This document shows, piece after piece, positions 1 to 16,740 of a stretch of DNA of 31,441 nt. Both the position numbers and the translations under genes were made by a program. Source of the stretch: Patescibacteria group bacterium (GTDB lineage Bacteria > Patescibacteriota > Minisyncoccia > Phycocordibacterales > Phycocordibacteraceae). The notes below the pieces were generated by a model. The model saw only the letters and a list, made by a program, of their open reading frames with translations. It did not search any database and had not been told where the DNA came from. The stretch lies in assembly GCA_038063025.1 (NCBI GenBank), contig JBBTWA010000048.1:1-31441 (forward strand). Direction: 5' to 3'. The number at the start of each line of letters is the position of its first letter. The first letter of the stretch is position 1.

Positions 1-390
1 GGCGCCGTAGGCGCCGATATTCTGGACTACGGCTCCGCCGACTGTGCCGGGAATGCCGGCGAGGTTCTCAACGCCGAAAATTCCCTTCTCTCCCGCGGCG
101 TCTACAACGCCGTCCCAGCTGGCTCCCGCGCCCGTTATGAGCAACGTGTCGGCGCCGTCGCTTTCAAAATTCATATCGCGCATCGCCATCTTCAGCACAA
201 CACCGTCAACACCGCCGTCCGGCACAAGCAGATTGCTCCCGCCTCCGAGCACGAACACGGAGAGAGAGTTGGCGCGGGCGAATGCGAGCGTCTCTTTTAC
301 TTCTTCAACCGACTGCGCCTCTGTGAAGTAGCGCGCGGGCCCGCCGATATGGAATGTCGTGAGAGATGCAAGCGGTACGTTTTCTTTCAT
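1..390 (-). CDS. murB: UDP-N-acetylenolpyruvoylglucosamine reductase (5' part only; runs off the window edge)
   Basis: Not in the ORF track. Hand translation from ATG at 390-388 gives MKENVPLASLTTFHIGGPARYF...VLGGGSNLLVPD...GVENLAGIPGTVGGAVVQNIGAYGA, containing the MurB motifs TTFxIGGPA, GGGSN and IPGTVGGAxxxNxGAYG. The start overlaps the upstream gene's TGA (ATGA). Confidence 0.95.
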   Translation of the reverse strand, partial: MKENVPLASLTTFHIGGPARYFTEAQSVEEVKETLAFARANSLSVFVLGGGSNLLVPDGGVDGVVLKMAMRDMNFESDGADTLLITGAGASWDGVVDAAGEKGIFGVENLAGIPGTVGGAVVQNIGAYGA

Positions 391-2552
391 TTCCCTTCTT
401 GAATCTGCTTAATGGCCGCAGCGCCTGCGTCTGCAGAGTCCGGATACTTCGCGACTGCCGTGTTGATAGCTTTAATCGCATTCGCCTTGTCTCCGGCCGT
501 ATAGTAGGCGGCGGCGAGCGAGAACCATGCGGGGGCATCTGCACTTGGCTTTTCCGTACGCAATTTGAGCATGCTGATTAGGCTCTGCCAATCGCCAGTG
601 CGATAGTATGCGACCGCGAGCACATTACTGTCTACCACAGTGGTGCCGAAAACTTCCATCAAGATTTTATCTGCCTCTTCCTTGTCTCCGGCGGCGATAT
701 TGCCGGCGGCGGAATAGATAGCCAGGTCAGTGAACTGCGGGCCGAGAGTGTATGCAGTATTAAAATCTTTCTGCGCCGACTTAACATCCCCAGTGTCCCA
801 CTCAACGGTTCCCTTCTCAATATAAAAACTTTCCTTATTTGGCGATAGAAGAATCGCGGCCTCCAATTCTTTAAGCGCATTCGCGCCGTCGCCTACTATG
901 CGGTATGCGTATGAGAGCTGAAGGCGCGCTCGCGCATCAAGCGGATACGATGCGGCCTGCTTTTGCATCTCTGTTATCGCGAGCGTTGCCGCACTCTGTT
1001 TCTGTTCATTTGTTACAGACTGGCTCTGCACGACCGCGCTTGCAAAAGAAACCATCTGCTCGCGCACCTCCTGCATAGCGAACGGCGGATGTGCGGAGAA
1101 ATATTCAAATGCTGCGAAATTTTTTGATAAATCTGCGGACGGCGATATTGCGGTAATAAGTTTGGACGCCGTTTGCATGCCTGAAATATTTACGAACCAG
1201 ATAATCACGAACACCGAGACGGCGGCGATAGGAAGCGCATAAGTCATGCCGTCTTCTGCAGAGATTTCAGGAGCATTTTCAAATCGTTCAATAGGTTGCG
1301 AAACCTGCGAGTCTATGAGCGCGAGTATGGCGAAGAAGTATATATAGGAGTACAGATTATCAAAGACGAAGAAATTGTGAACGGCATAGCCGGCGAGCAC
1401 GGCTGTGAGAGCGATTCGTTCCGGGCGCGAGAGCTCCGAACTTTTCCACAACAACATAATCGCGGAACCAAAGAGAGAGATATAGAGAAGAAATGCCGGT
1501 ATGCCACCAGCAGAGAGCCAATCAATAAAAGCGTTGTGCGCGCGGTCAAACCACTGTTCCTGTCCGTAAAGCGACGGCTCGTAAAACTTGTTGAAGACAT
1601 AATTGAAACCCTCCTGCCCGTAGCCTGTGAGCGGGCGCTCCAAGACGCCCTTAAACGCCATACTCCAGACGGTGAAACGCGTCTGGCCGTCTGCGATAGA
1701 AATGGACGCAATCCTCTGCAATACATTATTGTTTTGTACGAAATCAGAATTGCGCGCGAGATAGAAACTGCCAATCAGAATGAGAATAAGCACCAGCGCG
1801 CCCGCGGCCCACCCACGAGCGCGCTTCCCCGCCGTTATCGCAGTCAGAAATGCGGCCAAAGTTAAACCAAGAACCAAACCTATGATTGTCCCGCGCGTTT
1901 CAGTAAAAAATATGAGTGTAGCTTCAACGACTGCAAGAATAATAAGGGACCACTTCAACCAGACGTATTTCTCGGTGAGCGCGAGCCAGAGCGCAACAAA
2001 CGTGCTGAATAGAAGATATACAGCGAGGTATGCGGAATTACCGAGCGTCGTATCAATACGCGTAGAGCCCTGATGTATCGCGAGCGCACCAGAGAGCTGG
2101 AAAAGTGCATATCCAGAAATAATAACCGCAACGCCGAGCGAGGTAAGAAACCACGCCCTCCATTTTTTTTCTACGCGCAATATCGCGCTAGCCGCAAAGA
2201 ACAGTCCGAGGAGGTGGACGAGAAGCACCCAGCCCTCCATCCGCTCAAAGTTGCTCCAGAACGCTTTCGTCGCGTTAAATGCGAACGCATCGGCGACGAA
2301 CATCCAGACAACGAAGCCAACTACAGATGCCCCTATCCAAGAAAATCTGGGCCTGTACTCTTTATCCAGAAACGCGAGCACCACCCACGCGCCAACCGCT
2401 ATTTCTATCAGGATACGCAGATAAAACGCCTTGCCGGTAATAAACGGGAAGAAAAACGAGTTGGCTACAATGAGCGGTGTGAGCGGGAGCAGAAAAAGCG
2501 CCACAAGAGCCACCCACCTCGCCGCCTGTTTAGCTGCGCCTCCAGACTGCAT
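387..2552 (-). CDS. O-antigen ligase/Wzy_C-like polytopic membrane protein with C-terminal TPR repeats (possible oligosaccharyltransferase)
   Basis: 721 aa with about 12 hydrophobic segments; ligase-type motifs TETRGT, R...W...PLTGYGQEGF and DRAHNAFIDWL; TPR-like repeats at the C-terminus (ARLQLSYAYRIVGD...; AWFSLAAAYYTAGDKANAI). Confidence 0.85.
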   Translation of the reverse strand: MQSGGAAKQAARWVALVALFLLPLTPLIVANSFFFPFITGKAFYLRILIEIAVGAWVVLAFLDKEYRPRFSWIGASVVGFVVWMFVADAFAFNATKAFWSNFERMEGWVLLVHLLGLFFAASAILRVEKKWRAWFLTSLGVAVIISGYALFQLSGALAIHQGSTRIDTTLGNSAYLAVYLLFSTFVALWLALTEKYVWLKWSLIILAVVEATLIFFTETRGTIIGLVLGLTLAAFLTAITAGKRARGWAAGALVLILILIGSFYLARNSDFVQNNNVLQRIASISIADGQTRFTVWSMAFKGVLERPLTGYGQEGFNYVFNKFYEPSLYGQEQWFDRAHNAFIDWLSAGGIPAFLLYISLFGSAIMLLWKSSELSRPERIALTAVLAGYAVHNFFVFDNLYSYIYFFAILALIDSQVSQPIERFENAPEISAEDGMTYALPIAAVSVFVIIWFVNISGMQTASKLITAISPSADLSKNFAAFEYFSAHPPFAMQEVREQMVSFASAVVQSQSVTNEQKQSAATLAITEMQKQAASYPLDARARLQLSYAYRIVGDGANALKELEAAILLSPNKESFYIEKGTVEWDTGDVKSAQKDFNTAYTLGPQFTDLAIYSAAGNIAAGDKEEADKILMEVFGTTVVDSNVLAVAYYRTGDWQSLISMLKLRTEKPSADAPAWFSLAAAYYTAGDKANAIKAINTAVAKYPDSADAGAAAIKQIQEGK

Positions 2553-2562
2553 GATGAGAACA

Positions 2563-2571
2563 ACTATATCA
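2563..2571 (-). promoter_or_regulatory. Extended -10 element TGATATAGT for the ligase-murB unit
   Basis: Matches TGnTAnnnT, 10 nt upstream of the ATG at 2552; no SD sequence present. Confidence 0.5.
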
Positions 2572-2590
2572 TGTTTTCTTCGGTTCTAGA

Positions 2591-2599
2591 TGCTACGAT
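2591..2599 (+). promoter_or_regulatory. Extended -10 element TGCTACGAT for the gmd operon
   Basis: Matches TGnTAnnnT in the 81-bp divergent intergenic region; lies within the imperfect inverted repeat GATGCTA-CGA-TAGCGTC (2589-2605). Confidence 0.4.
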
Positions 2600-2633
2600 A
2601 GCGTCACACCTTTTATCTATACCTATATAATAT

Positions 2634-3686
2634 ATGAGTGCCCCAAAACATAAAAAAGCCCTGATTACCGGTATTACCGGCCAAGATGGTTCGTATTTAG
2701 CAGAATTGCTTCTTGAAAAGGGATATGAGGTGCACGGACTCATACGCCGTGCGAGCAATTTCAACACTCAGCGTATAGACCATATATATGAGGACCCGCA
2801 TAAACACGACGGGAGACTTTTCCTCCACTACGGCGACCTTTCTGACGGGAGCAACCTCAACCGCATCTTGAGCAAGGTGCAACCGGACGAAATATACCAC
2901 CTCGGCGCGCAGAGCCATGTACGCGTCAGTTTCGATATTCCGGAATATACTGCGGATGTTACCGGACTCGGCACCGTCCGCATTCTCGACGCGATGCGCG
3001 AAGTCGGGCTGAACAAGACGCGGTTCTACCAAGCATCGTCGAGCGAAATGTTCGGAAAGGCTCTTGAGATCCCGCTTAAGGAAACGACGCCCTTCCATCC
3101 TCGTTCGCCTTATGGTGTGGCGAAGGTATATGCCTATTGGATAACGAAAAATTATCGTGAGAGCTACGGAATGTTCGCCAGTAACGGTATCCTCTTCAAC
3201 CACGAGAGCGAGCGGCGCGGCGAGACCTTCGTCACGCGCAAGATTACGCAAGGACTCGCTCGCATCAAGCTCGGCAAAGAGAAGACGCTCTATCTCGGCA
3301 ATCTTGAAGCGAAGCGTGATTGGGGGTATGCAAAAGATTATGCGGAAGGCATGTGGCGCATACTCCAGCACACAGAACCGGATGACTTCATCCTCGCGAC
3401 CAATGAGTCGCACAGTGTCCGCGAGTTCGCTGAAGAAGCCGGCAAGGCGCTCGGTATGGATATCGTCTGGAAAGGAAAAGGTCTGAAAGAAAGGGGAATT
3501 GATAAAAAGACGGGGAAAACGATAATCAAAATAGATCCGAGATACTTTAGGCCGGCAGAAGTGGACATTCTTCGGGGCGACTATGCGAAAGCTAAAAAGA
3601 AACTTGGCTGGGAACCGACTACGAAGTTCGCCGATCTCGTGAAGCTCATGGTCGAAGCGGATTATGCCTATGAACAAGGGCGCTAA
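2634..3686 (+). CDS. gmd: GDP-mannose 4,6-dehydratase
   Basis: [64 protein letters not shown]: full Gmd motif set. Confidence 0.98.
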
Positions 3687-4599
3687 GATTTTCGTCGCGG
3701 GACATCTGGGACTCGTCGGCTCGGCGCTGGTCCGTGCGCTTGAAAAAGCGGGCTATCGCAACTTGCTTCTGCGCCCGCGCGCCGAACTCAACCTGCTTGA
3801 TCAGTATGCGACACGGTCTTTTTTCAAAAAAGAAAGGCCCGAGTATGTATTTCTCGCGGCCGCCAAAGTCGGCGGAATTGTGGCAAACCAAAACATGCCA
3901 GCATCTTTCATTCATGAAAACCTATCTGTGCAAAATAATGTAATCCATGAAGCGTATCGTTCTCAAGTAAAAAAACTTCTGTTTCTTGGAAGTTCTTGTA
4001 TATACCCAAAGCTCGCCCCGCAACCAATTAAAGAAGATTATTTAATGACTGGGCCACTTGAACCAACAAATTGTAATTACGCCATTGCTAAAATTGCAGG
4101 AATTTTTATGTGCCAAGCATACAACAAGCAATTTGACACAAACTTTATTTCGGTCATGCCGACGAACTTGTACGGACCGAACGATAACTATGATCTTGAA
4201 ACCTCACACGTCCTACCCGCTCTTATCCGGAAATTCCACGAAGCGAAACGGGATGGTGCCCCATCCGTAACGCTCTGGGGTACCGGTTCCGCAAAGCGCG
4301 AGTTCCTCCACGTCGATGACCTTGCGGACGCTTGCGTGTTCCTGATGAAGAAATATCATGGCTCGGATATTATTAATATCGGTACTGGTATTGATATAAC
4401 GATAAAAGAACTAGCAGAAAAAATAAAAAAGATTGTCTGTTATTCCGGAAAAATCGTATGGGATAAAACGAAGCCCGACGGCACGCCGCGGAAACTGTTG
4501 AACGTTAAGAAGCTACATAAGCTCGGCTGGAAACACTCGACAAATCTCGATGCGGGACTCAAGGAGACATATGGGTGGTACAAAGAAATCTATGAGTAG
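3670..4599 (+). CDS. fcl: GDP-L-fucose synthase-family epimerase/reductase (Fcl, or ColC GDP-colitose synthase)
   Basis: [73 protein letters not shown]. Start at 3670 preferred; 3664 is also in frame. Confidence 0.93.
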
Positions 4600-5413
4600 C
4601 GTTACTATTATTCGTCCAAAAAAGACATTTAGCCTCCGCGACTTGCAGGAAGTGTGGCAATACAAAGAACTCCTATACTTCTTCACATGGCGTGATTTCA
4701 AGGTGCGATATAAGCAGACCGCTATCGGCGTTCTGTGGGCCATCTTCCAGCCATTTATTACAATGGTGGTCTTTACTATTTTTTTTGGCAACCTGTTAAA
4801 AGTTCCATCAGATGGTGTTCCGTACCCAATCTTTGTTTACACCGGACTTTTATTTTGGCAGTTTTTTTCTTCTGCACTTTCCGATACTAGCAATGTTCTA
4901 ATTGCGAACCAGTCCATAATTACAAAAGTTTACTTCCCGCGCCTTATACTCCCATTATCTGCTGTAGCGACTAAACTCGTTGATTTCCTAATCGCTTCAG
5001 TAATCCTTGTCGGAATGATGATTTACTATGGCTACACGCCTCATTGGAGCGGCCTATTGATCATGCCGCTTCTGCTTATTATCACTTTTATGGCAGCCGT
5101 GGGCGGCGGCCTTTTCCTAGCGGCCGTAAATGTCAAATATCGCGATGTACGCTATGCACTTCCATTCTTCATACAGATACTCTTGTTCGTGACACCTGTT
5201 ATCTACCCGGCAAGTATCGCCGGCAAGTATTCCTGGATACTCGCCATGAACCCGATGACTGGAGTTATCCAAACGGCACGCGCCGCTCTTCTTGGTACAA
5301 CCGCTGTTAACTGGGCGCTTATAGCAGTATCATTCGTCGCAACTGCTGTGCTACTTATAGTCGGCATCTTATTTTTCAAAAAGGTTGAGCGTTATTTTGC
5401 CGATGTCATCTAA
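4592..5413 (+). CDS. wzm: ABC-2 polysaccharide exporter permease
   Basis: [35 protein letters not shown]...R motifs; 6 hydrophobic helices. ATG at 4592 overlaps the fcl stop (the track start at 4550 is probably too long). Confidence 0.95.
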
Positions 5414-5418
5414 CTCCC

Positions 5419-6690
5419 ATGAAACCGATTATAGAAATTAAGAGTATTGGAAAAAAGTACAGCATCACGCATCAGCGCGGCGGTTATGTAGCACTTCGTG
5501 ATATATTAACGAGTGTTGCAAAAAGCCCATTCAAGTTTTTGAAATCAAAAGCGAAACAGGCGATTGGCATAAATACTAAAGAAGAATTTTGGGCGCTAAA
5601 AAATATCTCATTTGATGTGATGCCGGGAGAGATTATCGGCATCATAGGCCCGAACGGTGCAGGGAAATCGACCCTCCTAAAAATCCTCACCGGCATCACG
5701 CCGCCGACCGAAGGCGAGATAATTATGCGTGGCCGAGTTGCCTCATTGCTTGAAGTAGGCACTGGCTTCCATCCTGAACTTACAGGACGCGAAAACATCT
5801 TCCTCAATGGCGCGATCTTGGGCATGACGAAGAAAGAGATCGCGTATAAGTTTAATGAAATCGTTGAGTTTTCTGGTGTGGAGAAATTCCTCGACACCCC
5901 GGTGAAATATTATTCAAGCGGCATGTATGTCCGTCTCGCCTTCTCAGTCGCGGCGCATATGGAGCCGGACATCCTCCTTGTCGATGAAGTACTCGCAGTC
6001 GGCGATGCTGAATTCCAGAATAAGTGTCTGGGGAAAATGGAAGAAGTCGCCGGAAAATCAGGGAGGACGATTCTCTTTGTTAGTCATAATATGGCGGCAA
6101 TTCAGACGCTGTGTAAAAAGACCGTCTGGCTCGAAAAAGGCAAAGTAAAAGAGGTCGGGAAAACGGAGGACATTATCAATCATTATTTGGACGAAGCAAA
6201 ATCTCGTACGACAGAAACCTCTTGGAGGGGAGAAAATGCTCCCGGGGATGCAGTCGCAATTCTTCATTCTGCACGAATTGTTGATGAGCATCATGAGAGC
6301 ATTCCTTTCGTCACTGCAAATAAAAAAGTAGGGATAGAATTTACCTACGAAATACTAGAGCCTGGACATACACCCGTCCCAAATATCCATATCTTCACCA
6401 TGCGAGGCGAATACGCATTCATTAGTCATGAGGAGTTTGATGAGAAATTGGGAGAAATGGGGAAACACAAAGCAACGATGTGGATACCAGGAGACCTACT
6501 CAACGAAGGCACCTACATTGCAGGAATAGCTCTCTCTACCATGAGGCCTCTTAAGATTCATTTTTACCAACAAGATGCCCTTACATTCAATGTTGTAGAA
6601 GACATTATGAGTTCTCGGAAGTTAGATTTCAATCAGAAAATCCCCGGGGTCGTACGTCCTCGTTTAAAGTGGGAAAATAAGAAAATATAA
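5419..6690 (+). CDS. wzt: ABC polysaccharide exporter ATPase with C-terminal carbohydrate-binding (Wzt_C-like) domain
   Basis: Walker A GPNGAGKST, signature YSSGM, Walker B ILLVDE, VSH motif; about 170 aa beta-rich C-terminal extension. Confidence 0.95.
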   Translation: MKPIIEIKSIGKKYSITHQRGGYVALRDILTSVAKSPFKFLKSKAKQAIGINTKEEFWALKNISFDVMPGEIIGIIGPNGAGKSTLLKILTGITPPTEGEIIMRGRVASLLEVGTGFHPELTGRENIFLNGAILGMTKKEIAYKFNEIVEFSGVEKFLDTPVKYYSSGMYVRLAFSVAAHMEPDILLVDEVLAVGDAEFQNKCLGKMEEVAGKSGRTILFVSHNMAAIQTLCKKTVWLEKGKVKEVGKTEDIINHYLDEAKSRTTETSWRGENAPGDAVAILHSARIVDEHHESIPFVTANKKVGIEFTYEILEPGHTPVPNIHIFTMRGEYAFISHEEFDEKLGEMGKHKATMWIPGDLLNEGTYIAGIALSTMRPLKIHFYQQDALTFNVVEDIMSSRKLDFNQKIPGVVRPRLKWENKKI

Positions 6691-6696
6691 GACACT

Positions 6697-7371
6697 ATGA
6701 CCAAAATCCTTGCGATTATCAGAAGTCTGCGTAATTCCTACAATGCAATGCGCAGAGGCAAAAGAGTTGGTGGTTTCGACATCCTCAGCATCTACAACGG
6801 ACACTTCAATATAAAATACCGAGGAGTTCCAGCCCTAAAATGCCCATTTGATTACGTCCTGTATCAAATGCTCATAAGTGAAATTCAGCCGGATTTGGTA
6901 ATAGAGATAGGGACAAGCAATGGCGGCACCACGCTATATCTGGCAGATCTTATGAATGCGATTGGGCATGGCGCAATACATACGATTGATAAAGATAATG
7001 GAATTTCTCCTACAACGCTTCAGCATCCGCGAGTAACTTCGTTTAGAGAGGGGTGGGAGGGATATGATCTCGAGAATGCAAAAGGATTTTCAAAAATAAT
7101 GATCATAGATGATGCTTCACATCAGTACGAAGATGTCCTGCAAACCATAGAGAAATTCGCACCTCTTGTTTCTCTCGGGTCCTATTTCATAGTCGAGGAT
7201 GGTATCGTCACGCGGATTGAAAGAGACATGGCTCTTGCGGGCGGACCGTTAAAAGCTGTGCACGAATTTCTACGAAAAAATCAAGATTTCAAGATCGATA
7301 GAAAATATTGCGATTTCTTCGGCAAAAACGCTACTTTCAATCCAGACGGATATCTGCAACGGGTAAAATAA
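6697..7371 (+). CDS. CmcI/cephalosporin-hydroxylase-family SAM-dependent (sugar O-)methyltransferase
   Basis: KCPFDYVLYQMLISEIQPDLVIEIGTSNGG, IDDASH, YFIVED, GPLKAVHEFL, TFNPDGYLQR are typical of the CmcI family. Confidence 0.85.
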   Translation: MTKILAIIRSLRNSYNAMRRGKRVGGFDILSIYNGHFNIKYRGVPALKCPFDYVLYQMLISEIQPDLVIEIGTSNGGTTLYLADLMNAIGHGAIHTIDKDNGISPTTLQHPRVTSFREGWEGYDLENAKGFSKIMIIDDASHQYEDVLQTIEKFAPLVSLGSYFIVEDGIVTRIERDMALAGGPLKAVHEFLRKNQDFKIDRKYCDFFGKNATFNPDGYLQRVK

Positions 7372-7372
7372 T

Positions 7373-8263
7373 ATGCCAAAAGTTTTCATAGGTATGCCTG
7401 TATACAATGGCGAACGTTTCCTCAAAGAAGCGATTGATTCCCTGCGCGCACAGACATTCACTGACTGGAAACTCCTTATTTCGGACGATGCCTCGACGGA
7501 TACGACATCCGTGATTTGTGAAGAATATGTGAAGAAAGATCAACGCATAGCCTACGTCCGGCAGGAGAAAAATATCGGAATGTTCCCCAACTTTAAATTC
7601 CTTCTCGACAAAGCCGATGGCGAGTATTTCATGTGGACCGCGCAGGATGATATTCGCGAGAAAGATTATCTAAAAATCTGTATGGAGCATCTCGAACGAA
7701 ACAAAAACGTCGGATTCGCAACTACCCGCACCGCAGGAATAGACTCATTTGGTAAGACGCTGATTAAGGAGACAGAACTGACTCGTCTCTCAGGAAAACC
7801 TGGGATGCTAAGTGTCGCTCGCTATGTTCTTCAGCCAGAAATTCTCGGTAAATGTAACCTCATGTATGGACTCTTCAGAACGATCGCCGCTAGAGAAACA
7901 TGGCGAGCGTATCCACAAAGAAATGTTTGGGGGCAAGATTATATGTTTTCTCTCGCTCTTGTAAGTCGATTCGAGATTTATGTCGACCCGCGGTACTTTT
8001 TTAAGAAAAGACATGGTGGATATTCAAGTCCTGGTGCACTTACAAACGATGCAAAAGAAAATCCCAAGAAACTTGAATACAAGAACCCAAAAAATCACAT
8101 ATTCCCTTTTGGGAGATTCAACAAATATTTTACAGGGCACCTTGAAGCACTTTCTGGCACTCCTTATCGCCCGCTTGCGGCAGTGTTGCTTCTTGTTCGT
8201 TTACCCCGATCATTCTTCCTGCATTTGAAAGAGAGGAATTACAAGAAATTTATAATTAGGTAG
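7373..8263 (+). CDS. GT2 family glycosyltransferase
   Basis: IGMPVYNGERFL, ISDDASTD, NIG..PNF, YFMWTAQDD. Confidence 0.9.
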   Translation: MPKVFIGMPVYNGERFLKEAIDSLRAQTFTDWKLLISDDASTDTTSVICEEYVKKDQRIAYVRQEKNIGMFPNFKFLLDKADGEYFMWTAQDDIREKDYLKICMEHLERNKNVGFATTRTAGIDSFGKTLIKETELTRLSGKPGMLSVARYVLQPEILGKCNLMYGLFRTIAARETWRAYPQRNVWGQDYMFSLALVSRFEIYVDPRYFFKKRHGGYSSPGALTNDAKENPKKLEYKNPKNHIFPFGRFNKYFTGHLEALSGTPYRPLAAVLLLVRLPRSFFLHLKERNYKKFIIR

Positions 8264-8273
8264 ACTTAAAACT

Positions 8274-9446
8274 ATGATTCCTTTGATGAAAAATGCGTTT
8301 TTGCACGAGGACGAGACAAAAAAAGCTTTGTCTGAATTCATCATGCAGGCAAAACGCCTCAGTATGGATGTGAAGTGTAGAGAATTTGAAGAGGCGTTTG
8401 CAAAAAAACAAGGCAGCAAACATGCGGTACTTTTCAATTCGGGCGGAAGCGCGAACCTTGCGATGCTCCAGAGCGCAAAAAATCTTGGTCTTCTCAAGGA
8501 GGGCGATTTGGTGGGGTTCTCTGCTCTCACTTGGTCGACAAATGTAATGCCGATTATCCAGCTCGGGATGAAGCCTGTTGCAATCGATTGTAATCCTTTG
8601 ACTCTCAATTCAATGTCGACGAATCTTCTTGAAACTCTCTCGACGCATGCTCTTCGTGCTTTTTTTGTGACGAATGTACTTGGGTTCGCAGGCGATCTTC
8701 CAGAAATAAAAAAGATATGTGACGAACGGAATATTCTCCTTCTTGAGGATAACTGCGAATCGCTTGGCACTGAACTGCCTGAAGGACGGACGGGTAATTT
8801 CGGATTTGGATCGAGTTTTTCATTTTTCGTCGCTCATCACATGTCGACTATAGAAGGCGGCATGGCCTGCACCAATGATGCTGAGTTTGCCGAGATGCTT
8901 CGTATCGTTCGAGCAAATGGCTGGGATAGGAATCTCGAACCAGAACAGCAGAAAAAGTTGCGAAAGAAATATGGTATCGAATCCGAATTCCAATCGAAAT
9001 ACACTTTCTATGATCTCGGATTTAATTTACGACCAACTGAGATAACCGGTTTTCTCGGCCTGCATCAACTCCAATTCTTAGAAGAAAATTTAAAGATTAG
9101 GGAGAATAATCATCGTTATCTTGAAAAAGCGCTTCAAAAAAATCCTGACTTTGTCGCGATCAATCGAAGTCACATACAAAAATTCTCCCCGTTTGCTTTT
9201 GCAATCGTCTGCAAAACACCTGCACTGAAGGAAAAATATCTTGCACGTTTCATCAATGCCGGTATCGAGGTGCGTCCGATGATTGCTGGTAATATGCAGA
9301 AACAGCCGTTCTATAAAAAATATGTAGAAGACACCGCAGACCTACCTGGGGCAGACTTCCTGCATCACAACGCTTTCTACTGCGGGAACTACCCTGAATT
9401 GACCCCCGAAGACCTCGAGACCATACGCATCTGCCTCAGAAATTAA
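8274..9446 (+). CDS. colD: PLP-dependent DegT/DnrJ-fold enzyme, ColD-like GDP-4-keto-6-deoxy-D-mannose 3-dehydratase
   Basis: NSGGSANL, EDNCESLG, SFSFFVAHHMSTIEGG with His (residue 188) where aminotransferases have the Schiff-base Lys; RANGWDRNL, GFNLRPTE, RPMIAGN; 390 aa; no Cys-rich Fe-S motif. Confidence 0.75.
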   Translation: MIPLMKNAFLHEDETKKALSEFIMQAKRLSMDVKCREFEEAFAKKQGSKHAVLFNSGGSANLAMLQSAKNLGLLKEGDLVGFSALTWSTNVMPIIQLGMKPVAIDCNPLTLNSMSTNLLETLSTHALRAFFVTNVLGFAGDLPEIKKICDERNILLLEDNCESLGTELPEGRTGNFGFGSSFSFFVAHHMSTIEGGMACTNDAEFAEMLRIVRANGWDRNLEPEQQKKLRKKYGIESEFQSKYTFYDLGFNLRPTEITGFLGLHQLQFLEENLKIRENNHRYLEKALQKNPDFVAINRSHIQKFSPFAFAIVCKTPALKEKYLARFINAGIEVRPMIAGNMQKQPFYKKYVEDTADLPGADFLHHNAFYCGNYPELTPEDLETIRICLRN

Positions 9447-9447
9447 A

Positions 9448-10317
9448 ATGATCATCACAAAACTCATCGGAGGACTTGGAAATCAGATGTTCCAGTACGC
9501 AGTCGCACGGCATTTAGCACTCAAAAATAATGTCGAATTGAAATTGGACAAAACTGGATTCGAAACATACAAACTGCACGCATACGGTCTTCATCATTTG
9601 AACATCGAGGAGGTATTCGCGACACAAAAAGAAGTAGCTGCATTCCGTATATACAAGAAGAGGGAGGGAAAGATGTGGTTCTTATACAATCGACTGATCG
9701 CAGATCCGACGCGCTATGTTTCTGAACGATCTTTCAATTTCGATCCTTCTATTTTAAAACTATCCGCCCCAGTCTATCTTGATGGCTTTTGGCAGAGTGA
9801 GCGGTATTTCAAGGGAATAGAATCTATCATTCGCGACGAATTTACTATCAAGGAACTGCTCGTCGGGAAGAATAGAAAAATGACAGACGCAATCTCGAAC
9901 TCTACCGCTGTAAGCATGCATATTCGTCGTGCTGACTACGTCACCAATCCTACCGTGAATGCATGGCATGGTACCTGCGATTCTGAGTATTATGCACGAG
10001 CAGTTTCAACAATTGTGCAGACCATCGCTGACCCGCATTTTTTCATTTTTTCAGACGATATGGAGTGGGCAAGGCAAAACATCATTCTCGATCATCCCGT
10101 AACCTATGTTGATCATAATGACGCCCGCACCAACTATGAAGACCTGCGTCTCATGAGCCGATGCAAGCACAACATCATCGCCAATAGCTCTTTCTCCTGG
10201 TGGGGTGGTTGGCTGAACAATAATCCTGGCAAAATAGTGATAAGCCCAAAAAACTGGTTCAAAACGCCAAAAATGGATGTGCGCGACTTAGTACCTGATA
10301 CTTGGGTTAAACTATAA
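9448..10317 (+). CDS. GT11 alpha-1,2-fucosyltransferase/colitosyltransferase-family protein
   Basis: GGLGNQMFQYA, LDGFWQSERYF, HIRRADY, FFIFSDD, HNIIANSSFSWWGGWL. Confidence 0.95.
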   Translation: MIITKLIGGLGNQMFQYAVARHLALKNNVELKLDKTGFETYKLHAYGLHHLNIEEVFATQKEVAAFRIYKKREGKMWFLYNRLIADPTRYVSERSFNFDPSILKLSAPVYLDGFWQSERYFKGIESIIRDEFTIKELLVGKNRKMTDAISNSTAVSMHIRRADYVTNPTVNAWHGTCDSEYYARAVSTIVQTIADPHFFIFSDDMEWARQNIILDHPVTYVDHNDARTNYEDLRLMSRCKHNIIANSSFSWWGGWLNNNPGKIVISPKNWFKTPKMDVRDLVPDTWVKL

Positions 10318-10320
10318 TAT

Positions 10321-12075
10321 ATGTGCGGAATCCTCGCTGTCACTGGAACCAACAAAGATACGAAACGCGCTGATGCGATGTTGCAGACGCTTGCTCGACG
10401 TGGGCCAGACGATCAGGGTATTCTTTCGTTCCGTTCCTGCGTACTTGGGCAAACTCGTCTCTCGATTATCGATATTGCGGGCGGACATCAACCGATGCGT
10501 GACAGCAAGCATAACATAGCCATCACTTTTAACGGTGAGATATACAACTATAAAGAATTAAAAAAAGAATTGGAGAATAAAGGATACATTTTCTCTACCA
10601 ATTCAGATACTGAAGTAATCCTAAAGGCCTATCAGGAATATGGTGTTGACTGTCCGAAGCACTTGGATGGCATGTTCGCTTTCGCTCTCTGGGACGACGA
10701 GAGGCAATCGCTCTTTATGGCGCGCGACCGTTTTGGAAAGAAACCGCTATATTATGCTTATGACCCCGAGGGAAATCTGCTGGTCGCTTCCGAAATAAAA
10801 GCCCTCTTCGCCTCGGGACGGATAACGGGAGAGCTCGACCATGGAGCGCTGGATAACTACCTGGCGCTTATGTATGTCCCGCCGACGAGGACCATTTATA
10901 AGAATGTCTTTACCCTGCTTCCGGCGGAGTGTGCGGTATACAAGGGCGACACGCTTACAAAAAGCAAATACTGGCAGCTGGAATGTAAACCGCTCCGGAT
11001 ATCGTATACAGATGCGAAAGAAGAGATTCGTCGGCTCTTTACAGATGCGGTCAAGAAACGTCTAGTAGCTGATGTCGAGATCGGCAGCTTCCTCTCCGGC
11101 GGGGTTGATTCGACGCTTGTTACTGCTTACGCTCAGAAATTGACTAATCGGCCACTCAAGACCTTCTCTCTCGGCTATGGCGACTACCGCAACGAGCTCC
11201 CCTTTGCTGAAGAAGCTGTCAAGAAAATCGGAACCGACCACTACACACTCCAAGCAAATGAAGATCTCTTAGGGGCGTTCAAAGCAAGTATCGCATATTT
11301 TGATGAGCCTCACGCCGATTCGTCTGACTTCCCCCAATCACTGCTTTCACAATTTGCCGCTACTAAGGTGAAAGTTGCTCTCTCGGGCGACGGCGCTGAC
11401 GAGCTTTTTATGGGGTATGGCTGGTATCAGAAGCATTGGAACCTTTCGTATCGTAAGCATACATTTGAAAAACTTTTTTTGAATCCTTTCGAGGGATACA
11501 TAAAAAACATTTCCATATTCAGCGAGAGCGAAAGAAAGACATTGTGGGGTAACAGTAAAAACTACATGGAGACATTCGTACCTTCGAGCATTGCCAACAG
11601 TAAACTCGACCCTATCGAGAAGATAAATCTCTTCGACCTCACCACCTATCTCCCCGGTCAACTGCTCAGCAAAGTCGACATGATGGGCATGATGCACGGC
11701 CTCGAAGTGCGCTCCCCCTTCCTCGACTACAAACTCGCAGAGTTCGTCTACAATCTGCCTATGGGATTCAAGATGAACAAAGGCGAGAACAAAATAATTC
11801 TGAAAGATATTTTGTCAGAAATCATGCCTCAAGAATTCGTCTATCGCCGCAAACAGGGCTTCGGCGCACCGGTAAAAGAATGGCTCAAGACGCCTCAATT
11901 AGAAAATATCATCAAGGAGAAGCTCGGGTCTGGCGCACACATATATGGTTATCTCGAAGAAACTGTCGTGCGAGAAATCGTCAGCTCGTTCTATGGCAAG
12001 AAAGACGAGGAGGTATTTTATAAAATATGGGCGATCCTCTGCCTTGAGCTGTGGATGGAATCCCATAACGTATGA
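10321..12075 (+). CDS. asnB: Asparagine synthase (glutamine-hydrolysing)-family amidotransferase, probably glycan-modifying
   Basis: N-terminal MCGI, RGPD, TFNGEIYNY, SDTEVIL, ARDRFGKKPL, LSGGVDS, SGDGADELF, EVRSPFLD, KQGF. Confidence 0.93.
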   Translation: MCGILAVTGTNKDTKRADAMLQTLARRGPDDQGILSFRSCVLGQTRLSIIDIAGGHQPMRDSKHNIAITFNGEIYNYKELKKELENKGYIFSTNSDTEVILKAYQEYGVDCPKHLDGMFAFALWDDERQSLFMARDRFGKKPLYYAYDPEGNLLVASEIKALFASGRITGELDHGALDNYLALMYVPPTRTIYKNVFTLLPAECAVYKGDTLTKSKYWQLECKPLRISYTDAKEEIRRLFTDAVKKRLVADVEIGSFLSGGVDSTLVTAYAQKLTNRPLKTFSLGYGDYRNELPFAEEAVKKIGTDHYTLQANEDLLGAFKASIAYFDEPHADSSDFPQSLLSQFAATKVKVALSGDGADELFMGYGWYQKHWNLSYRKHTFEKLFLNPFEGYIKNISIFSESERKTLWGNSKNYMETFVPSSIANSKLDPIEKINLFDLTTYLPGQLLSKVDMMGMMHGLEVRSPFLDYKLAEFVYNLPMGFKMNKGENKIILKDILSEIMPQEFVYRRKQGFGAPVKEWLKTPQLENIIKEKLGSGAHIYGYLEETVVREIVSSFYGKKDEEVFYKIWAILCLELWMESHNV

Positions 12076-13250
12076 ACAACGTCTTGCAAAAATATGCGTC
12101 GGCATATCGGAACAAGATTACCAACAAACTCTTCGGTGTAGTTTCTCTGCACACGAAGGAGAAGAAAAAAGGCGCGATGCTCCTCTCCTTCATCACCGGG
12201 CCATTCACGCTTGCACCGGGAGAATTTTATACCGATCCTCATTCGAATTATTGGGTCGCGATTGAAATTGCGCGTCTTTTCACCGGGAGAGGATACGATG
12301 TCGATGTCATCAACTGGAATGACACCCATTTCATTCCAAAAAAGAAATATAACGCCTGCATTGATATGCAGTACAATCTCAAGAGGCTTTCGCCCTACCT
12401 TTGGCCGGATTGCATCAAGATCATGCATATTGTCGCCTCGTATCCCACATTCCAAAATGAAGCGGAACAGAAACGGCTCGATGCACTGAAAGAGCGCAGA
12501 GGAAGGACGGTCTCTCCGCACAGAACCGATCCGGCCACGAGCGATCCTTCAGTTGCGGATTTTATCGAAGGCTACGGAAACAAAACTGTTCGCGGCACCT
12601 ATCCGAATGTTGGGAAAGATATTATTCCTATACCCATACCGACGATGAATATCTACGATTTCCCCGAAAAAAAAGATTTCGCGGCGGCTCGGGAACATTT
12701 CCTCTGGTTCGGTGGTGGAGGAGCTATTCTAAAAGGGCTCGACTTGGTAGTTGAAGTATTTGCTGAACTCCCCCACTTACAACTCTCGATCATCGGGCCC
12801 TCTGCTTATGAAAAAGAGTTTGAAGAAATATATGCCAAAGAGCTACAGCTACCGAACATTACTCGCTACGGCCGCCCCCATATAAACGAGAGAGGTGAGC
12901 ACATGGTCGGCAACAGAGATATCCGAGAGGTCTATGATCAATGCGGCTCGATTATCTTTCTCTCGGCTTCAGAGGGCGGTGGCGGAGCGACCGTCCAATC
13001 CATGCAGGCAGGGCTATTCCCCATCGTCACGCCGAATACCGGTATTGACGAGAGCGCCCCGAGCATAGTCGTAAAGGATCTGTCGATTGAGAATATCAAG
13101 AAAGTCGTCGAGGATTTTTCGAATCTGCCCCCAGAACAAGTGGGTAAGCTCGCCAGGGGTTCATGGGCGTTTGCTCGAGAGCATCACACCAAAGAAGCGT
13201 TCACTAAAGCGTATGAGGACTTTTTAGATAACGTCGTAAAACTGCCATGA
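12072..13250 (+). CDS. GT4-like (GT-B fold) glycosyltransferase
   Basis: FLWFGGGGAILKGLDLVVEVF and SASEGGGGATVQSMQAGLFPIVT; ATGA overlap with asnB. Confidence 0.8.
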   Translation: MNNVLQKYASAYRNKITNKLFGVVSLHTKEKKKGAMLLSFITGPFTLAPGEFYTDPHSNYWVAIEIARLFTGRGYDVDVINWNDTHFIPKKKYNACIDMQYNLKRLSPYLWPDCIKIMHIVASYPTFQNEAEQKRLDALKERRGRTVSPHRTDPATSDPSVADFIEGYGNKTVRGTYPNVGKDIIPIPIPTMNIYDFPEKKDFAAAREHFLWFGGGGAILKGLDLVVEVFAELPHLQLSIIGPSAYEKEFEEIYAKELQLPNITRYGRPHINERGEHMVGNRDIREVYDQCGSIIFLSASEGGGGATVQSMQAGLFPIVTPNTGIDESAPSIVVKDLSIENIKKVVEDFSNLPPEQVGKLARGSWAFAREHHTKEAFTKAYEDFLDNVVKLP

Positions 13251-14104
13251 CCGAAAAACCGCTCATCTCAGTAATAATACCCGCACACAACAATGAGCAA
13301 ACGATAGCTACAGCCATCGAATCGATGGTCAAACAGACATACACGAATCTGGAAATAATCGTCATTGATGACAACAGCACCGATGATACAAAAAAGGTAG
13401 TACGGAAACTAATCGAGAGATACGAGAATCTATTCTTCTATCCTCTGCCTTTCGACGATCCGAATCGATTCAACAAACGTGGACGCAATATAAATGCCGG
13501 CTACGCCGCACGCAACTATGGGTTTGAAAAGGTGCATGGAGAATGGATCACCTTTCAGGATGCCGATGATGCGTCTTTGCTGAACCGCATTGAAGTTCAA
13601 TATGGACTTGTTACGAGGTACGACGCCATCCATGTGTGCGTAGACTGGCAGAAATTTAATCCTGCCCTGCTCGGAAAGACGCTTGACGCTGATCGAATCC
13701 TCAGAGAACATCCAGATGCGATTATCTGGCCGCAAGACATAACGGCATTAGCAAAAAAGACAAAAGGAGTGCTCATTCCGTTTCTCGGTCCGATCAATGC
13801 ACTGATTCCGTTTGAATGGAAGCGCTTCATGGTAATCAACAAGTTCTTTTTTCGTGCGCTTGACCCCTACCCCGGCACCGGCAACAGCCCGCTCTTCAAG
13901 CGCGAGGTCATCGAGAAAGTGCGATTCAGGAAATTGTCTGACCGCGTCTGGCCCTCCTTTATGGGGCGCGGGGCCGATCGCGACTTCAACTTCCAAGTTG
14001 CCGAGACATACAAGAACAGCATTGTGGTACTGTTGCCACTCTATATGTGGCGAGTCAACATACAGAACCAGTTTTGGGTGGACATCTTCCGCTATCTCGT
14101 CTAG
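13247..14104 (+). CDS. GT2 family glycosyltransferase
   Basis: ISVIIPAHN, IVIDDNSTD, ARNYG, ITFQDADD; ATGA overlap with the upstream gene. Confidence 0.9.
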   Translation: MTEKPLISVIIPAHNNEQTIATAIESMVKQTYTNLEIIVIDDNSTDDTKKVVRKLIERYENLFFYPLPFDDPNRFNKRGRNINAGYAARNYGFEKVHGEWITFQDADDASLLNRIEVQYGLVTRYDAIHVCVDWQKFNPALLGKTLDADRILREHPDAIIWPQDITALAKKTKGVLIPFLGPINALIPFEWKRFMVINKFFFRALDPYPGTGNSPLFKREVIEKVRFRKLSDRVWPSFMGRGADRDFNFQVAETYKNSIVVLLPLYMWRVNIQNQFWVDIFRYLV

Positions 14105-14113
14105 TCTTAAAAA

Positions 14114-15019
14114 ATGAAATTCAGCATTGTCACCCCGGTCTACAATGGCGAAAAGTATATCGCCGAAACGATTGAGAGCATCCTCTCTCAAGAGGGAAAT
14201 TTCGAGGTTGAATACGTCGTTGCCGACGGAGGCTCGGTCGATGGAACCCTCTGCGTCGTCAAAGCCTATGCTGAGAAACTGCGGTCCGGCTCTTTCCCTA
14301 TCAAGTGCGATAATGTGCAGCTGGACTGGTTTTCTGGAAAGGACAACGGCTTGTACGATGCAGTAGAAAAAGGATTCGCCAAAACAGGCGGGAACATTTG
14401 CGCGTGGCTGAATTCGGACGACGTATATATGCCCGGCGCTTTCGCGTCCGTCGCCGCCATCTTTACAACCTATCCCGATATAAACTGGGTAAAAGGTATC
14501 AATAAATCGTGTGACGAGCACGGCACCACTCTTTCGGAAGGAGCATGCCGCCTATATCGGCGTGAATGGCTCCTCAAAGGCGTGTATGGGCGGAGCGCAT
14601 ACTTCGTGGACCAAGAGAGCGTATTTTGGAGACGTTCATTATTGGAGAAAGCACGCCCATCCATCTCATCATTTCGTCTTGCCGGTGATTATGCGCTCTG
14701 GGCCTCATTAGCCCGATTTGCGCCGCTATGGTCTTTCAACAAGCACGTGAGCATATTTCGCAGAAGGCCCGGGCAGCTCAGCACCTCCATGAAAGTCTAC
14801 CGTGAGGAGCAGAGAAGTATCGTTCCGAAAGATTTCTTCCTTGAAAAAAAAGTTGCTCTGTTCTTCTCTTCCGTACGTTTTCTCAGGATGGAACCGAAAA
14901 GCATCCTAGCTCGGACTCTCTTTGCGGTTCTTTTCCCTTTTGAGCGGAAAGAATGGTACATTGACTTCGACACGAGTGGGTTACCGGTGAAAAAGCTGGC
15001 TGTCTCATATGTCGCGTGA
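14114..15019 (+). CDS. GT2 family glycosyltransferase (WcaE/WfgS-like)
   Basis: FSIVTPVYN, VADGGSVDGT, DNGLYDAVEKG, AWLNSDD, QESVFWRR. Confidence 0.9.
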   Translation: MKFSIVTPVYNGEKYIAETIESILSQEGNFEVEYVVADGGSVDGTLCVVKAYAEKLRSGSFPIKCDNVQLDWFSGKDNGLYDAVEKGFAKTGGNICAWLNSDDVYMPGAFASVAAIFTTYPDINWVKGINKSCDEHGTTLSEGACRLYRREWLLKGVYGRSAYFVDQESVFWRRSLLEKARPSISSFRLAGDYALWASLARFAPLWSFNKHVSIFRRRPGQLSTSMKVYREEQRSIVPKDFFLEKKVALFFSSVRFLRMEPKSILARTLFAVLFPFERKEWYIDFDTSGLPVKKLAVSYVA

Positions 15020-15031
15020 CGGCATCGCCTT

Positions 15032-15799
15032 ATGAATGTATCCAAATTCCTGCTGCAAAAGATCCTTCTTAACTGGGAACGCCCGATATATTCTCCGGCG
15101 CTTTTTAAGTTCTGCACGAAGTATCTCGACCTGTGGTATGGTGATAATAATTTCAATCGGAATACCAATGGCGAGTATCGCCTCCTCCGGTCCCTCATAC
15201 CTAAGACAAACGTAGTGTTCGATGTAGGCGCCAATGTCGGAGATTATTCCGGCGAGGTCCTCAAAATAAAACGTTCCGTCTCTATCCATGCGTTCGAACC
15301 GGATATCCACGCTTTTGCAGAACTGCAAAAACTTTGCGTCATAGCGAACAATATCGCTCTCGGCGATAAAATTGAAAGGAGGTTGCTCTACCGCGGGGAT
15401 GAAAAAACGACTCATAACTCGTTCTACAATGTTCACACAAAATCGATAGCGCCGCTGGAGGTATCGACCGCGACGCTTGATGCGTACTGCCGAGGACACG
15501 ATGTCTCCCATATTGATTTCCTAAAGATTGATGTGGAAGGGTTTGAGTTTTTGGTCTTGAGGGGAGCGGAGCATATGCTCAGTCGCGGTGCAATCGATTA
15601 TATTCAGTTCGAATTCTCGGGCGCAACGATCGAATCAAGAACATTCCTAAAAGACTTTCTGGAGCTGTTCAAGAAATACGGCTATGACCTCTACCGCGTC
15701 CGAGCGACATCTGTTGAACCGGTTGTGTATCGCCCGGACACTGAGCGCTTCACCCTCACCAATTACCTGGCGATGAAGAAGGGACTTTCTGTTCCCTAG
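15032..15799 (+). CDS. FkbM-family methyltransferase
   Basis: VFDVGANVGDY, AFEP, TLDAY, IDFLKIDVEGFEFLVLRGA. Confidence 0.92.
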   Translation: MNVSKFLLQKILLNWERPIYSPALFKFCTKYLDLWYGDNNFNRNTNGEYRLLRSLIPKTNVVFDVGANVGDYSGEVLKIKRSVSIHAFEPDIHAFAELQKLCVIANNIALGDKIERRLLYRGDEKTTHNSFYNVHTKSIAPLEVSTATLDAYCRGHDVSHIDFLKIDVEGFEFLVLRGAEHMLSRGAIDYIQFEFSGATIESRTFLKDFLELFKKYGYDLYRVRATSVEPVVYRPDTERFTLTNYLAMKKGLSVP

Positions 15800-15807
15800 C
15801 CTCGTTT

Positions 15808-16740
15808 ATGAAAAAAGCCGTTATTGTACAGGCAACCGGGGGAGAGCTCACAAACCAGCTCTGGAATTATGCGAGCGTATACGCCTACTGCCTCGAGCGA
15901 GGCTACTCCCTCGAGAATCCCTCTTTTTTTGAATATGGGAACTACTTCACCATTCCCGCGCCAAATCTTTTTTTCAAACTGTTCTTATTCCTCCCATTCA
16001 CCGATTACACGAAGCGCAAGCAGTCGTTCAAACGGCGGCTGTGGCGCAGGCTCTATGCATCATATGCGCGTATTCTCATTCTCCGACACAAAGATTCAGT
16101 TCTCGTTTCCGACAACAAAAAGAATCAACCATTTTATCTTTTCCCGACAGAAGAGCGCACAGAGCTATTGAGACTTGAGAAAGTTGCAGGGACGATCCTA
16201 TTCGACGGATGGCTTTTTCGCAATCCCGTCGGTCTCCAAAAATACCGGCGAGAAATACTGCAGTACTTCCAACCGCGGCGGGATATAGAAAATGCGGTGA
16301 AAGCGCGCATACGAAAACTGAGGGGCGAGTTCAAACATCTAGCGGGTGTCCACATTCGCCAAGGCGACTATCTAACATGGCGGGACGGGGTGTATTTTAT
16401 CGCCCAGACGCGCGTGCGAGAGATCCTTGACGAATACCTGCAAACGACCGGCCGTATCGTCTCCGAAACCTGTTTTATCATCACCTCCGACGGGCCGGTT
16501 GACGCTTCCCTATTCGCCGGACTGAATATACGGGTGAGCAAGGAGAATGCTGTCCACGATTTGTTTCTCCTTTCTACGACCGATACCGTTATCGGTGCCA
16601 ACAGCACCTTCGGCGCGTTCGCTTCCTATTTAGGGAACATCCCTCTTATCGTTATGCAAAAAGGACATTTGGATTGGGAATACTACTTAGACAAAAAAAC
16701 GTATTTCGAAAACAAATATTCGACCTTCGTTTATTACTAG
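15808..16740 (+). CDS. Divergent GT11-like (alpha-1,2-fucosyltransferase-like) glycosyltransferase
   Basis: GGELTNQLWNY, FDGWLFRN, VHIRQGDY, IITSD, DLFLLSTTDTVIGANSTFGAFASYL resemble the GT11 motifs in degenerate form. Confidence 0.75.
   Translation: MKKAVIVQATGGELTNQLWNYASVYAYCLERGYSLENPSFFEYGNYFTIPAPNLFFKLFLFLPFTDYTKRKQSFKRRLWRRLYASYARILILRHKDSVLVSDNKKNQPFYLFPTEERTELLRLEKVAGTILFDGWLFRNPVGLQKYRREILQYFQPRRDIENAVKARIRKLRGEFKHLAGVHIRQGDYLTWRDGVYFIAQTRVREILDEYLQTTGRIVSETCFIITSDGPVDASLFAGLNIRVSKENAVHDLFLLSTTDTVIGANSTFGAFASYLGNIPLIVMQKGHLDWEYYLDKKTYFENKYSTFVYY

Follow-up and report, generated by a model that had tools for sequence, protein, structure and literature searches.

A candidate GDP-colitose module in a surface-glycan operon of a groundwater Parcubacteria bacterium

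Results

Within a 31,441-nucleotide (nt) stretch of a bacterial genome recovered from groundwater metagenomes (contig JBBTWA010000048.1, assembly GCA_038063025.1; the whole stretch is hereafter the window), we identified a gene for a predicted ColD-type sugar 3-dehydratase dependent on pyridoxamine 5′-phosphate (PMP). It was located in one plus-strand array with gmd, an Fcl-family gene, and a family 11 glycosyltransferase (GT11). The best reading of these genes, and one that we consider likely, is that they form a module for GDP-mannose-derived colitose (GDP-colitose) in a surface-glycan operon of a Parcubacteria member of the candidate phyla radiation (CPR). A first-pass annotation, made from the sequence alone, had proposed a CPR bacterium as the probable host, and this was borne out by EF-Tu, which was 92-95% identical to proteins from Parcubacteria, Paceibacterota, and Kaiserbacteria, as well as by the small assembly (0.517 Mb, 84.7% complete, 99 contigs). 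The array (2634-16740) comprised 14 genes, all intact and tightly packed, with gaps of at most 12 nt or short overlaps.

Identity of the His188 enzyme

The translation of the dehydratase gene contained SFSFFVAHHMSTIEGG, in which the first His is residue 188. This residue aligned with His188 of Escherichia coli ColD, the position altered in the H188N structure (3b8x), and in an alignment of 82 sequences the same column held His in all 58 dehydratase-type rows and Lys in all 24 aminotransferase-type rows. The protein has eight Cys, and at the columns of the extra iron-sulfur (Fe-S) cysteines of E1-type enzymes (Cys250, Cys252, and Cys263) it carried Arg219, Leu221, and Lys227, the first two of which are common to the window protein and E. 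coli ColD. The best match by sequence in the PDB was ColD (2gms, E 4e-59, residues 16-384 against 18-385), followed by E1 (3bcx, E 7e-45), with aminotransferases far weaker than both. Likewise, the 12 best PDB fold matches of an AlphaFold (AF2) model with a mean confidence score (pLDDT) of 89 were all ColD chains, at template modeling (TM) scores of 0.87-0.88, as compared to 0.84 for E1.

Nine residues (W87, N134, A214, W217, R219, N220, F239, G259, and N372) were present in ColD and in at least 95% of 46 environmental sequences, were missing from the E1-like and Lys-type rows, and gave the motif RAxGWxRNL. E. coli ColD and the window protein share this motif with its Arg219, as well as Arg331/334; we take Arg219 and Arg331 to be GDP-phosphate ligands in ColD.

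In a careful maximum-likelihood reconstruction, E. coli ColD and 28 environmental sequences formed a single supported clade (100/97) from which E1-like sequences were excluded. ColD from E. coli O55 was the one characterized ColD in the trees, and both its branch and that of the environmental clade were long. A quick 77-row tree agreed with this placement (support 96) and split off the Lys-type rows with a support of 99. The His-type dehydratases were monophyletic, and verified E1-type enzymes, of which those from CPR genomes matched 3bcx at E 1e-105, fell outside the group formed by the window clade and E. coli ColD. Deeper ColD-type subclades were sampled within the CPR phylum only. For these comparisons E. 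coli ColD, ColC, and WbgN were taken from the O55:H7 chromosome by protein search; searching E. coli genomes at the DNA level with colD had returned no match.

By every sequence-level criterion, the protein is a predicted ColD-type, Fe-S-free 3-dehydratase, and it is placed in a large, divergent environmental clade that is sister to E. coli ColD and outside the enteric group itself. Two other identities were rejected. An E1/DdhC enzyme was excluded by the lack of the Cys motif, by a score of 213.7 bits against NF011936 (RfbH; cut-off 423), and by the position outside the E1 clade, and an ordinary aminotransferase by the His in place of Lys and the supported separation from the Lys-type rows. 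Thus, the first-pass description of a 390-residue DegT-fold protein with His188 and without a Cys-rich Fe-S motif was confirmed by the translation and by the residues at the three cysteine columns, and its ColD-type interpretation by the closest structure, the shared residues, and the phylogeny that it had suggested as a check.

ColD of E. coli O55:H7 (WbdK, GDP-4-keto-6-deoxy-D-mannose 3-dehydratase; PDB 2GMS/3B8X) is, like the window protein, about 390 residues long, with the DegT fold, His188, and no Fe-S cysteines, and its gene too lies beside an Fcl-family gene (O55 colC overlaps colD). E1 (AscC/DdhC/RfbH, CDP-6-deoxy-L-threo-D-glycero-4-hexulose 3-dehydrase) resembles the ColD type in having His for the catalytic Lys and in performing PMP-dependent C3 deoxygenation, but is about 437 residues long, holds a [2Fe-2S] cluster, and needs the reductase E3, while the window protein lacks the Cys ligands.

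Synteny of the module

We identified 33 close loci (L017-L049), encoding proteins 49-80% identical to the window's ColD-type protein, in a scan with one genome per species. Their hosts included CPR lineages (Nomurabacteria, Paceibacterota, Vogelbacteria, Parcubacteria, and Levyibacteriota), many Chitinophagales and Cytophagales (Bacteroidota), and members of the Planctomycetota, Verrucomicrobiota, Spirochaetota, and Myxococcota, such that the cassette loci span at least seven phyla. An Fcl-family gene was present in 29 of the 33 loci and adjoined colD in 27, and a colC-like gene preceded colD in most related loci, the order also seen in O55. GT11 genes were located directly 3′ of colD in 16 of the 33 (19 held one somewhere) and also in L111/L112, a close Parcubacteria relative. 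The gmd gene of the window was 60-80% identical to those of related cassettes, and its wzm and wzt exporter genes 71-77% identical to those of four CPR cassettes (L017, L030, L032, and L045).

The relative represented by L111/L112, with a ColD-type protein 80% identical to that of the window and an EF-Tu 93% identical (both genes probably on one contig, the longest one listed for each being 257,040 bases), had gmd, fcl, colD, and GT11 contiguous, preceded by the MurB gene and the ligase-like Wzy_C/TPR gene that also flank the array in the window. Its exporter differed, being a fused ABC_membrane and ABC_tran protein encoded downstream, as did its methyltransferases (RfbT-like), while in the window a block of wzm, wzt, methyltransferase, and GT2 genes lies between fcl and colD. 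The locus behaves like an O-antigen-type island in which variable genes surround a constant sugar module.

The GT11 gene next to colD starts 1 nt past the colD stop, as the first-pass annotation had noted (TAA at 9444-9446, ATG at 9448). Its product was 36% identical to the colitosyltransferase WbgN of E. coli O55 over 288/290 residues (E 8e-50). GT11 enzymes transfer either fucose or colitose, and WbgN and FUT2 take both GDP-colitose and GDP-fucose (PMC11987014); the donor of the window enzyme would be colitose and/or fucose.

We also noted a 3.9-kb contig binned as "uncultured Gammaproteobacteria" (L018) that carried colD and GT11 as a pair (79% and 55% identical to those of the window), and whose sequence nested among those of Nomurabacteria and the window in the tree. 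Either the contig is from a CPR genome and was mis-binned, or the transfer was recent.

Evidence that tempers the colitose assignment

Several observations weigh against a colitose module. Identity between the window protein and E. coli O55 ColD is low, at 31%, E1-type enzymes nearly match it in score against ColD (188 versus 204 bits), and Ser187 of ColD is replaced by Ala, although a preprint reports that the Ser187 site is not conserved among characterized dehydratases (10.1101/2021.09.04.459008). In Campylobacter jejuni, homologs with 62-67% identity to ColD use a GDP-heptose (PMC10440746), so family membership does not by itself reveal the substrate. The window's Fcl is of the canonical type, being neither the colD-adjacent paralog type nor enteric ColC, and its ColC role is a predicted one. 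Searches of the 84.7%-complete assembly returned no match to E. coli ManB or ManC, PF00483, PF12804, PF02878, or TIGR01479. Finally, the sequencing runs found to hold the stretch were of DNA only, with no RNA runs.

The finishing reductase

The window's Fcl was 57% identical to E. coli WcaG (Fcl) and 37% identical to E. coli O55 ColC, and we found no second Fcl-type gene in the assembly. In phylogenetic analysis it was placed with E. coli Fcl, gmd-adjacent Bacteroidota copies, and the Fcl of other CPR cassettes (support 98/90), outside a separate, mostly non-CPR clade of 23 colD-adjacent paralogs (99/99); enteric ColC formed a very long branch. Hence, of the "colC/fcl" assignment made in the first pass, an Fcl-family gene linked to gmd and colD stands, and the phylogeny points to a canonical Fcl rather than a dedicated ColC.

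This placement raises the question of whether another enzyme finishes the sugar. The 3-dehydratase could act as proposed while a different reductase, either the short-chain dehydrogenase/reductase (SDR) or the RmlD-methyltransferase fusion encoded farther downstream (Table 1), yields another 3,6-dideoxyhexose, possibly O-methylated, with Fcl making only GDP-fucose. In keeping with such a division, Bacteroidota with the cassette keep a gmd-adjacent Fcl plus the colD-adjacent paralog, which suggests that the two jobs are usually split, and the window holds these two further SDR-type genes along with several methyltransferases. However, four CPR relatives (L030, L032, L045, and L111/L112) have a canonical-type Fcl adjoining colD and no second Fcl-type gene in the locus, and the other SDRs are not conserved beside colD in related loci. 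Moreover, the canonical and colD-adjacent clades differ at just one strongly discriminating column, and the Ser/Cys/Tyr/Lys/His catalytic set (numbered as in E. coli GDP-fucose synthase) is identical in canonical Fcl, the colD-adjacent paralogs, and E. coli ColC. We therefore consider a different finishing reductase to be quite unlikely.

Colitose is 3-deoxy-L-fucose, so that the same C5-epimerase and C4-reductase chemistry would suffice for both sugars. We infer that one Fcl serves both GDP-fucose and GDP-colitose in this CPR lineage; since the only Fcl-type gene is canonical, GDP-fucose is expected as a co-product and is probably also made.

The substrate of the dehydratase

A second alternative is that the enzyme deoxygenates another nucleotide sugar, either GDP-6-deoxy-4-keto-heptose, as in C. 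jejuni HS:5/HS:11, or a dTDP- or CDP-linked 4-keto-6-deoxyhexose from a second 4,6-dehydratase-like SDR, leaving gmd, fcl, and GT11 as a plain fucose module. The C. jejuni C3-dehydratases are ColD-family PLP/PMP enzymes that likewise use a GDP-linked 4-keto-6-deoxy sugar, in their case a heptose, but they sit in a GDP-heptose pathway (GmhA, HddA, and HddC; PMC10440746), as compared to the gmd, fcl, and GT11 partners in the window. GmhA was not detected in the window's assembly, nor above the family cut-off in seven CPR relatives (one weak, sub-cut-off match), and it is ManC (TIGR01479, 488 bits), rather than HddC, that adjoins gmd in a Nomurabacteria relative; the heptose route found no support. 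In favor of another substrate, the window does encode an SDR resembling dTDP-glucose 4,6-dehydratase (212 bits, below the model cut-off), and a deeper CPR/Levyibacteriota subclade of ColD-type proteins has as its neighbor an SDR just 23-37% identical to the window's Gmd and Fcl. Still, the tight fcl-colD-GT11 synteny across phyla, and the contiguity of gmd, fcl, colD, and GT11 in the closest relatives, are hard to explain for anything but a GDP-hexose substrate, and on this evidence a different nucleotide sugar appears very unlikely.

The deeper subclade itself (L047-L049 from Levyibacteriota; L006 and L011-L016 from CPR) carried the motif TFSFYVGHH at 46-51% identity, with the divergent SDR located beside colD in L015 and L047-L049, and may have a different substrate or product. 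In addition, a single-contig CPR genome (L082, G192:C1:786000-803000) encoded, in one cluster, a true RfbH-type E1 (693 bits) followed by Gmd, a hypothetical protein, a ColD-like protein, a KedN5-family radical SAM C-methyltransferase of the B12-dependent type, and an Fcl-like protein, which suggests a C-methylated 3,6-dideoxy sugar beside a CDP-dideoxyhexose route.

Precursor supply

With these precursor genes not found in the assembly, the first-pass claim of a complete pathway is not borne out. Their absence would also fit a cell that cannot make GDP-mannose, in which the module is idle alone, either drawing on a host-derived precursor or being a cassette that was acquired recently and lies unused. 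ManC was found above the family cut-off in only one of eight CPR genomes with the cassette, the GC content of the 4-10 kb interval (0.43-0.47) is below the genome mean (0.49), and there is a precedent in Ca. Organicella, a tiny verrucomicrobial symbiont that keeps ColD and ColC and lacks the upstream steps (PMC8204192). Against this, one PF00483 gene was present in six of the seven complete genomes searched from the same order, and given also the incompleteness of the assembly, a gap is the simplest explanation for the missing PF00483 gene and the likely one for the absence of sugar nucleotidyltransferases. Furthermore, every gene of the array is intact and tightly packed, and a related lineage carries the module at the same position in its chromosome, which speaks for its maintenance by selection. 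A module left idle because the cell cannot make GDP-mannose is, in our view, highly improbable. As a side observation, the assembly yielded no GlmU-type gene (PF00483/PF12804) and no PF02878 phosphohexomutase, though MurB is present.

Remaining genes of the array

The features of the window are listed in Table 1. Beyond the sugar module, the array encodes an exporter, methyltransferases, and further glycosyltransferases. A wzt with a C-terminal PF14524 domain followed by a gene of the CmcI/rhamnosyl O-methyltransferase family is the layout expected for ABC-exported polysaccharides in which export is coupled to a methylated chain terminus. The pair formed by this methyltransferase and the adjacent GT2 was also present in two CPR cassettes (L020 and L045; 54-66% identity).

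Copies of the AsnB-type gene that follows GT11 were 54-74% identical in L019, L020, and L045, and one is located downstream in L111/L112, where it adjoins a gene of the UDP-glucose/GDP-mannose dehydrogenase family. The enzyme may act on a uronic acid in the glycan, amidating it.

Upstream of gmd, a 185-residue open reading frame (2073-2630, plus strand) overlaps the minus-strand Wzy_C/TPR gene by 480 nt. It had no family match and no homolog in 44 related loci and is probably not a real gene, in which case the 82 nt that separate positions 2552 and 2634 would serve as a divergent promoter region.

Table 1. Features of the window in and around the array, with the supporting matches
Feature	Position	Strand	Evidence or remark
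MurB	1-390	-	
Wzy_C/TPR gene, 721 aa	387-2552	-	
gmd, GDP-mannose 4,6-dehydratase	2634-3686	+	First of array; TIGR01472 574.7 bits (cut-off 415); PF16363 515 bits
fcl, GDP-4-keto-6-deoxymannose epimerase/reductase	3664-4599	+	NF047922 484.4 bits (just below cut-off 500); 1bsv E 3e-114
wzm, ABC-2 polysaccharide exporter permease	4550-5413	+	PF01061
wzt, ATPase with C-terminal glycan-binding domain	5419-6690	+	PF00005 and PF14524; TagH/Wzt NCBIfam matches
CmcI/rhamnosyl O-methyltransferase-family methyltransferase	6697-7371	+	PF04989 116.8 bits
GT2 glycosyltransferase	7373-8263	+	PF00535 92 bits
ColD-type PMP-dependent sugar 3-dehydratase (predicted), DegT fold, 390 aa	8274-9446	+	PF01041 198 bits, residues 14-384
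Codon CAT, His188, in place of the catalytic Lys of aminotransferases	8835-8837	+	
GT11, candidate alpha-1,2 colitosyl/fucosyltransferase	9448-10317	+	PF01531 125.7 bits
AsnB-type glutamine amidotransferase	10321-12075	+	TIGR01536 488 bits
GT4 glycosyltransferase	12072-13250	+	
Two GT2 genes	13247-15019	+	
FkbM methyltransferase	15032-15799	+	
Second, weak GT11-like gene	15808-16740	+	Last of array; PF01531 28.2 bits, E 1.4e-6 (cut-off 23.9)
SDR resembling dTDP-glucose 4,6-dehydratase	16747-17694		212 bits, below model cut-off
RmlD-methyltransferase fusion	20778-22436		

Discussion

In the pathway that we propose, Gmd would convert GDP-mannose to GDP-4-keto-6-deoxy-D-mannose, from which the His188 enzyme, PMP-dependent and without an Fe-S cluster, would strip the C3 hydroxyl to give GDP-4-keto-3,6-dideoxy-D-mannose, PMP being regenerated from glutamate. 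The single canonical-type Fcl would then perform C5 epimerization and C4 reduction to yield GDP-L-colitose and, acting directly on the Gmd product, GDP-L-fucose as well. The colD-adjacent GT11 would place colitose and/or fucose on a glycan that the neighboring GT2 and GT4 enzymes would assemble, that the CmcI-family enzyme probably methylates, and that would leave the cell through Wzm/Wzt. We found no LpxC in eight CPR genomes that carry the cassette, which indicates that the glycan is not a classical O-antigen; in a cell that appears to lack the lipid A pathway, the product would be of another kind.

The system has the same four enzyme families as the GDP-colitose system of E. coli O55 (Gmd, ColD, ColC/WbdJ, and WbgN). 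It differs in its export route (Wzm/Wzt rather than Wzx/Wzy), in having a canonical Fcl as the predicted finishing enzyme, and in that manB, manC, and gmm were not in the locus or the assembly. The dehydratases themselves are separated by long branches, and their hosts also contrast, with ColD belonging to a lipopolysaccharide-bearing enteric and the window to a monoderm-type CPR bacterium.

Of 400 genomes sampled from the window's phylum (0.5-1.7 Mb), 14 carried ColD-type genes (E ≤1e-100), none of them belonging to the window's own class, and a Bacteroidota sample gave 0 of 300 other genomes. Public metagenome-assembled genomes of Nomurabacteria, Vogelbacteria, and Paceibacterota also hold the gene under generic names. 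More than 6000 database proteins matched at E ≤1e-20, many of them unnamed, generic, or labeled "CDP-6-deoxy-D-xylo-4-hexulose-3-dehydrase" or "E1". The first-pass annotation, which was aware of no CPR example, had recommended such a survey; by these counts the gene is not rare in CPR. Its broader proposal of a colitose pathway retains the linkage of gmd, an Fcl-family gene, a ColD-type gene, and GT11, whereas completeness and a dedicated ColC are not supported, and the H-antigen-like character that it gave the glycan is conjectural. The literature that we searched contained nothing connecting colitose with CPR.

A more far-reaching scenario, which we consider speculative and unlikely, is that in these Parcubacteria of about 0.6 Mb a minimal set of gmd, colD, and one bifunctional Fcl feeds both fucose and colitose to paired GT11s. 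The methyl-capped, Wzm/Wzt-exported glycan, in the absence of lipid A, would then be a new non-lipopolysaccharide colitose glycoconjugate, possibly made from host-derived GDP-mannose or precursors. Under this scenario the ColD-type clade would be more at home in CPR than in Bacteroidota, given the counts above, with CPR as the reservoir of the cassette.

The chemistry and all of the families involved are already known and the cassette is widespread; no new chemistry or mechanism is at issue. What the analysis usefully adds is that the enzyme belongs to a sister clade of E. coli ColD, that the only Fcl is a canonical one, that the precursor supply is unproven, and that the setting is not one of lipopolysaccharide. 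Colitose has so far been regarded as a signature sugar of a few O-antigens from Gram-negative bacteria. The divergent ColD clade described here is spread through environmental bacteria, where it is annotated merely as "DegT aminotransferase" or misnamed "CDP ... 3-dehydrase E1", and its members turn up repeatedly in ultrasmall CPR bacteria, where searches for the lipid A gene LpxC gave no match. The combination of RAxGWxRNL and His188 provides a simple annotation rule by which ColD-type enzymes can be told from their E1-type and aminotransferase relatives. For CPR bacteria, the module predicts a surface glycan that can be tested for, in which a 3,6-dideoxy/6-deoxy-L-sugar caps an ABC-exported polymer, and such a cap could help the cells to attach to hosts or to escape phages and grazers.

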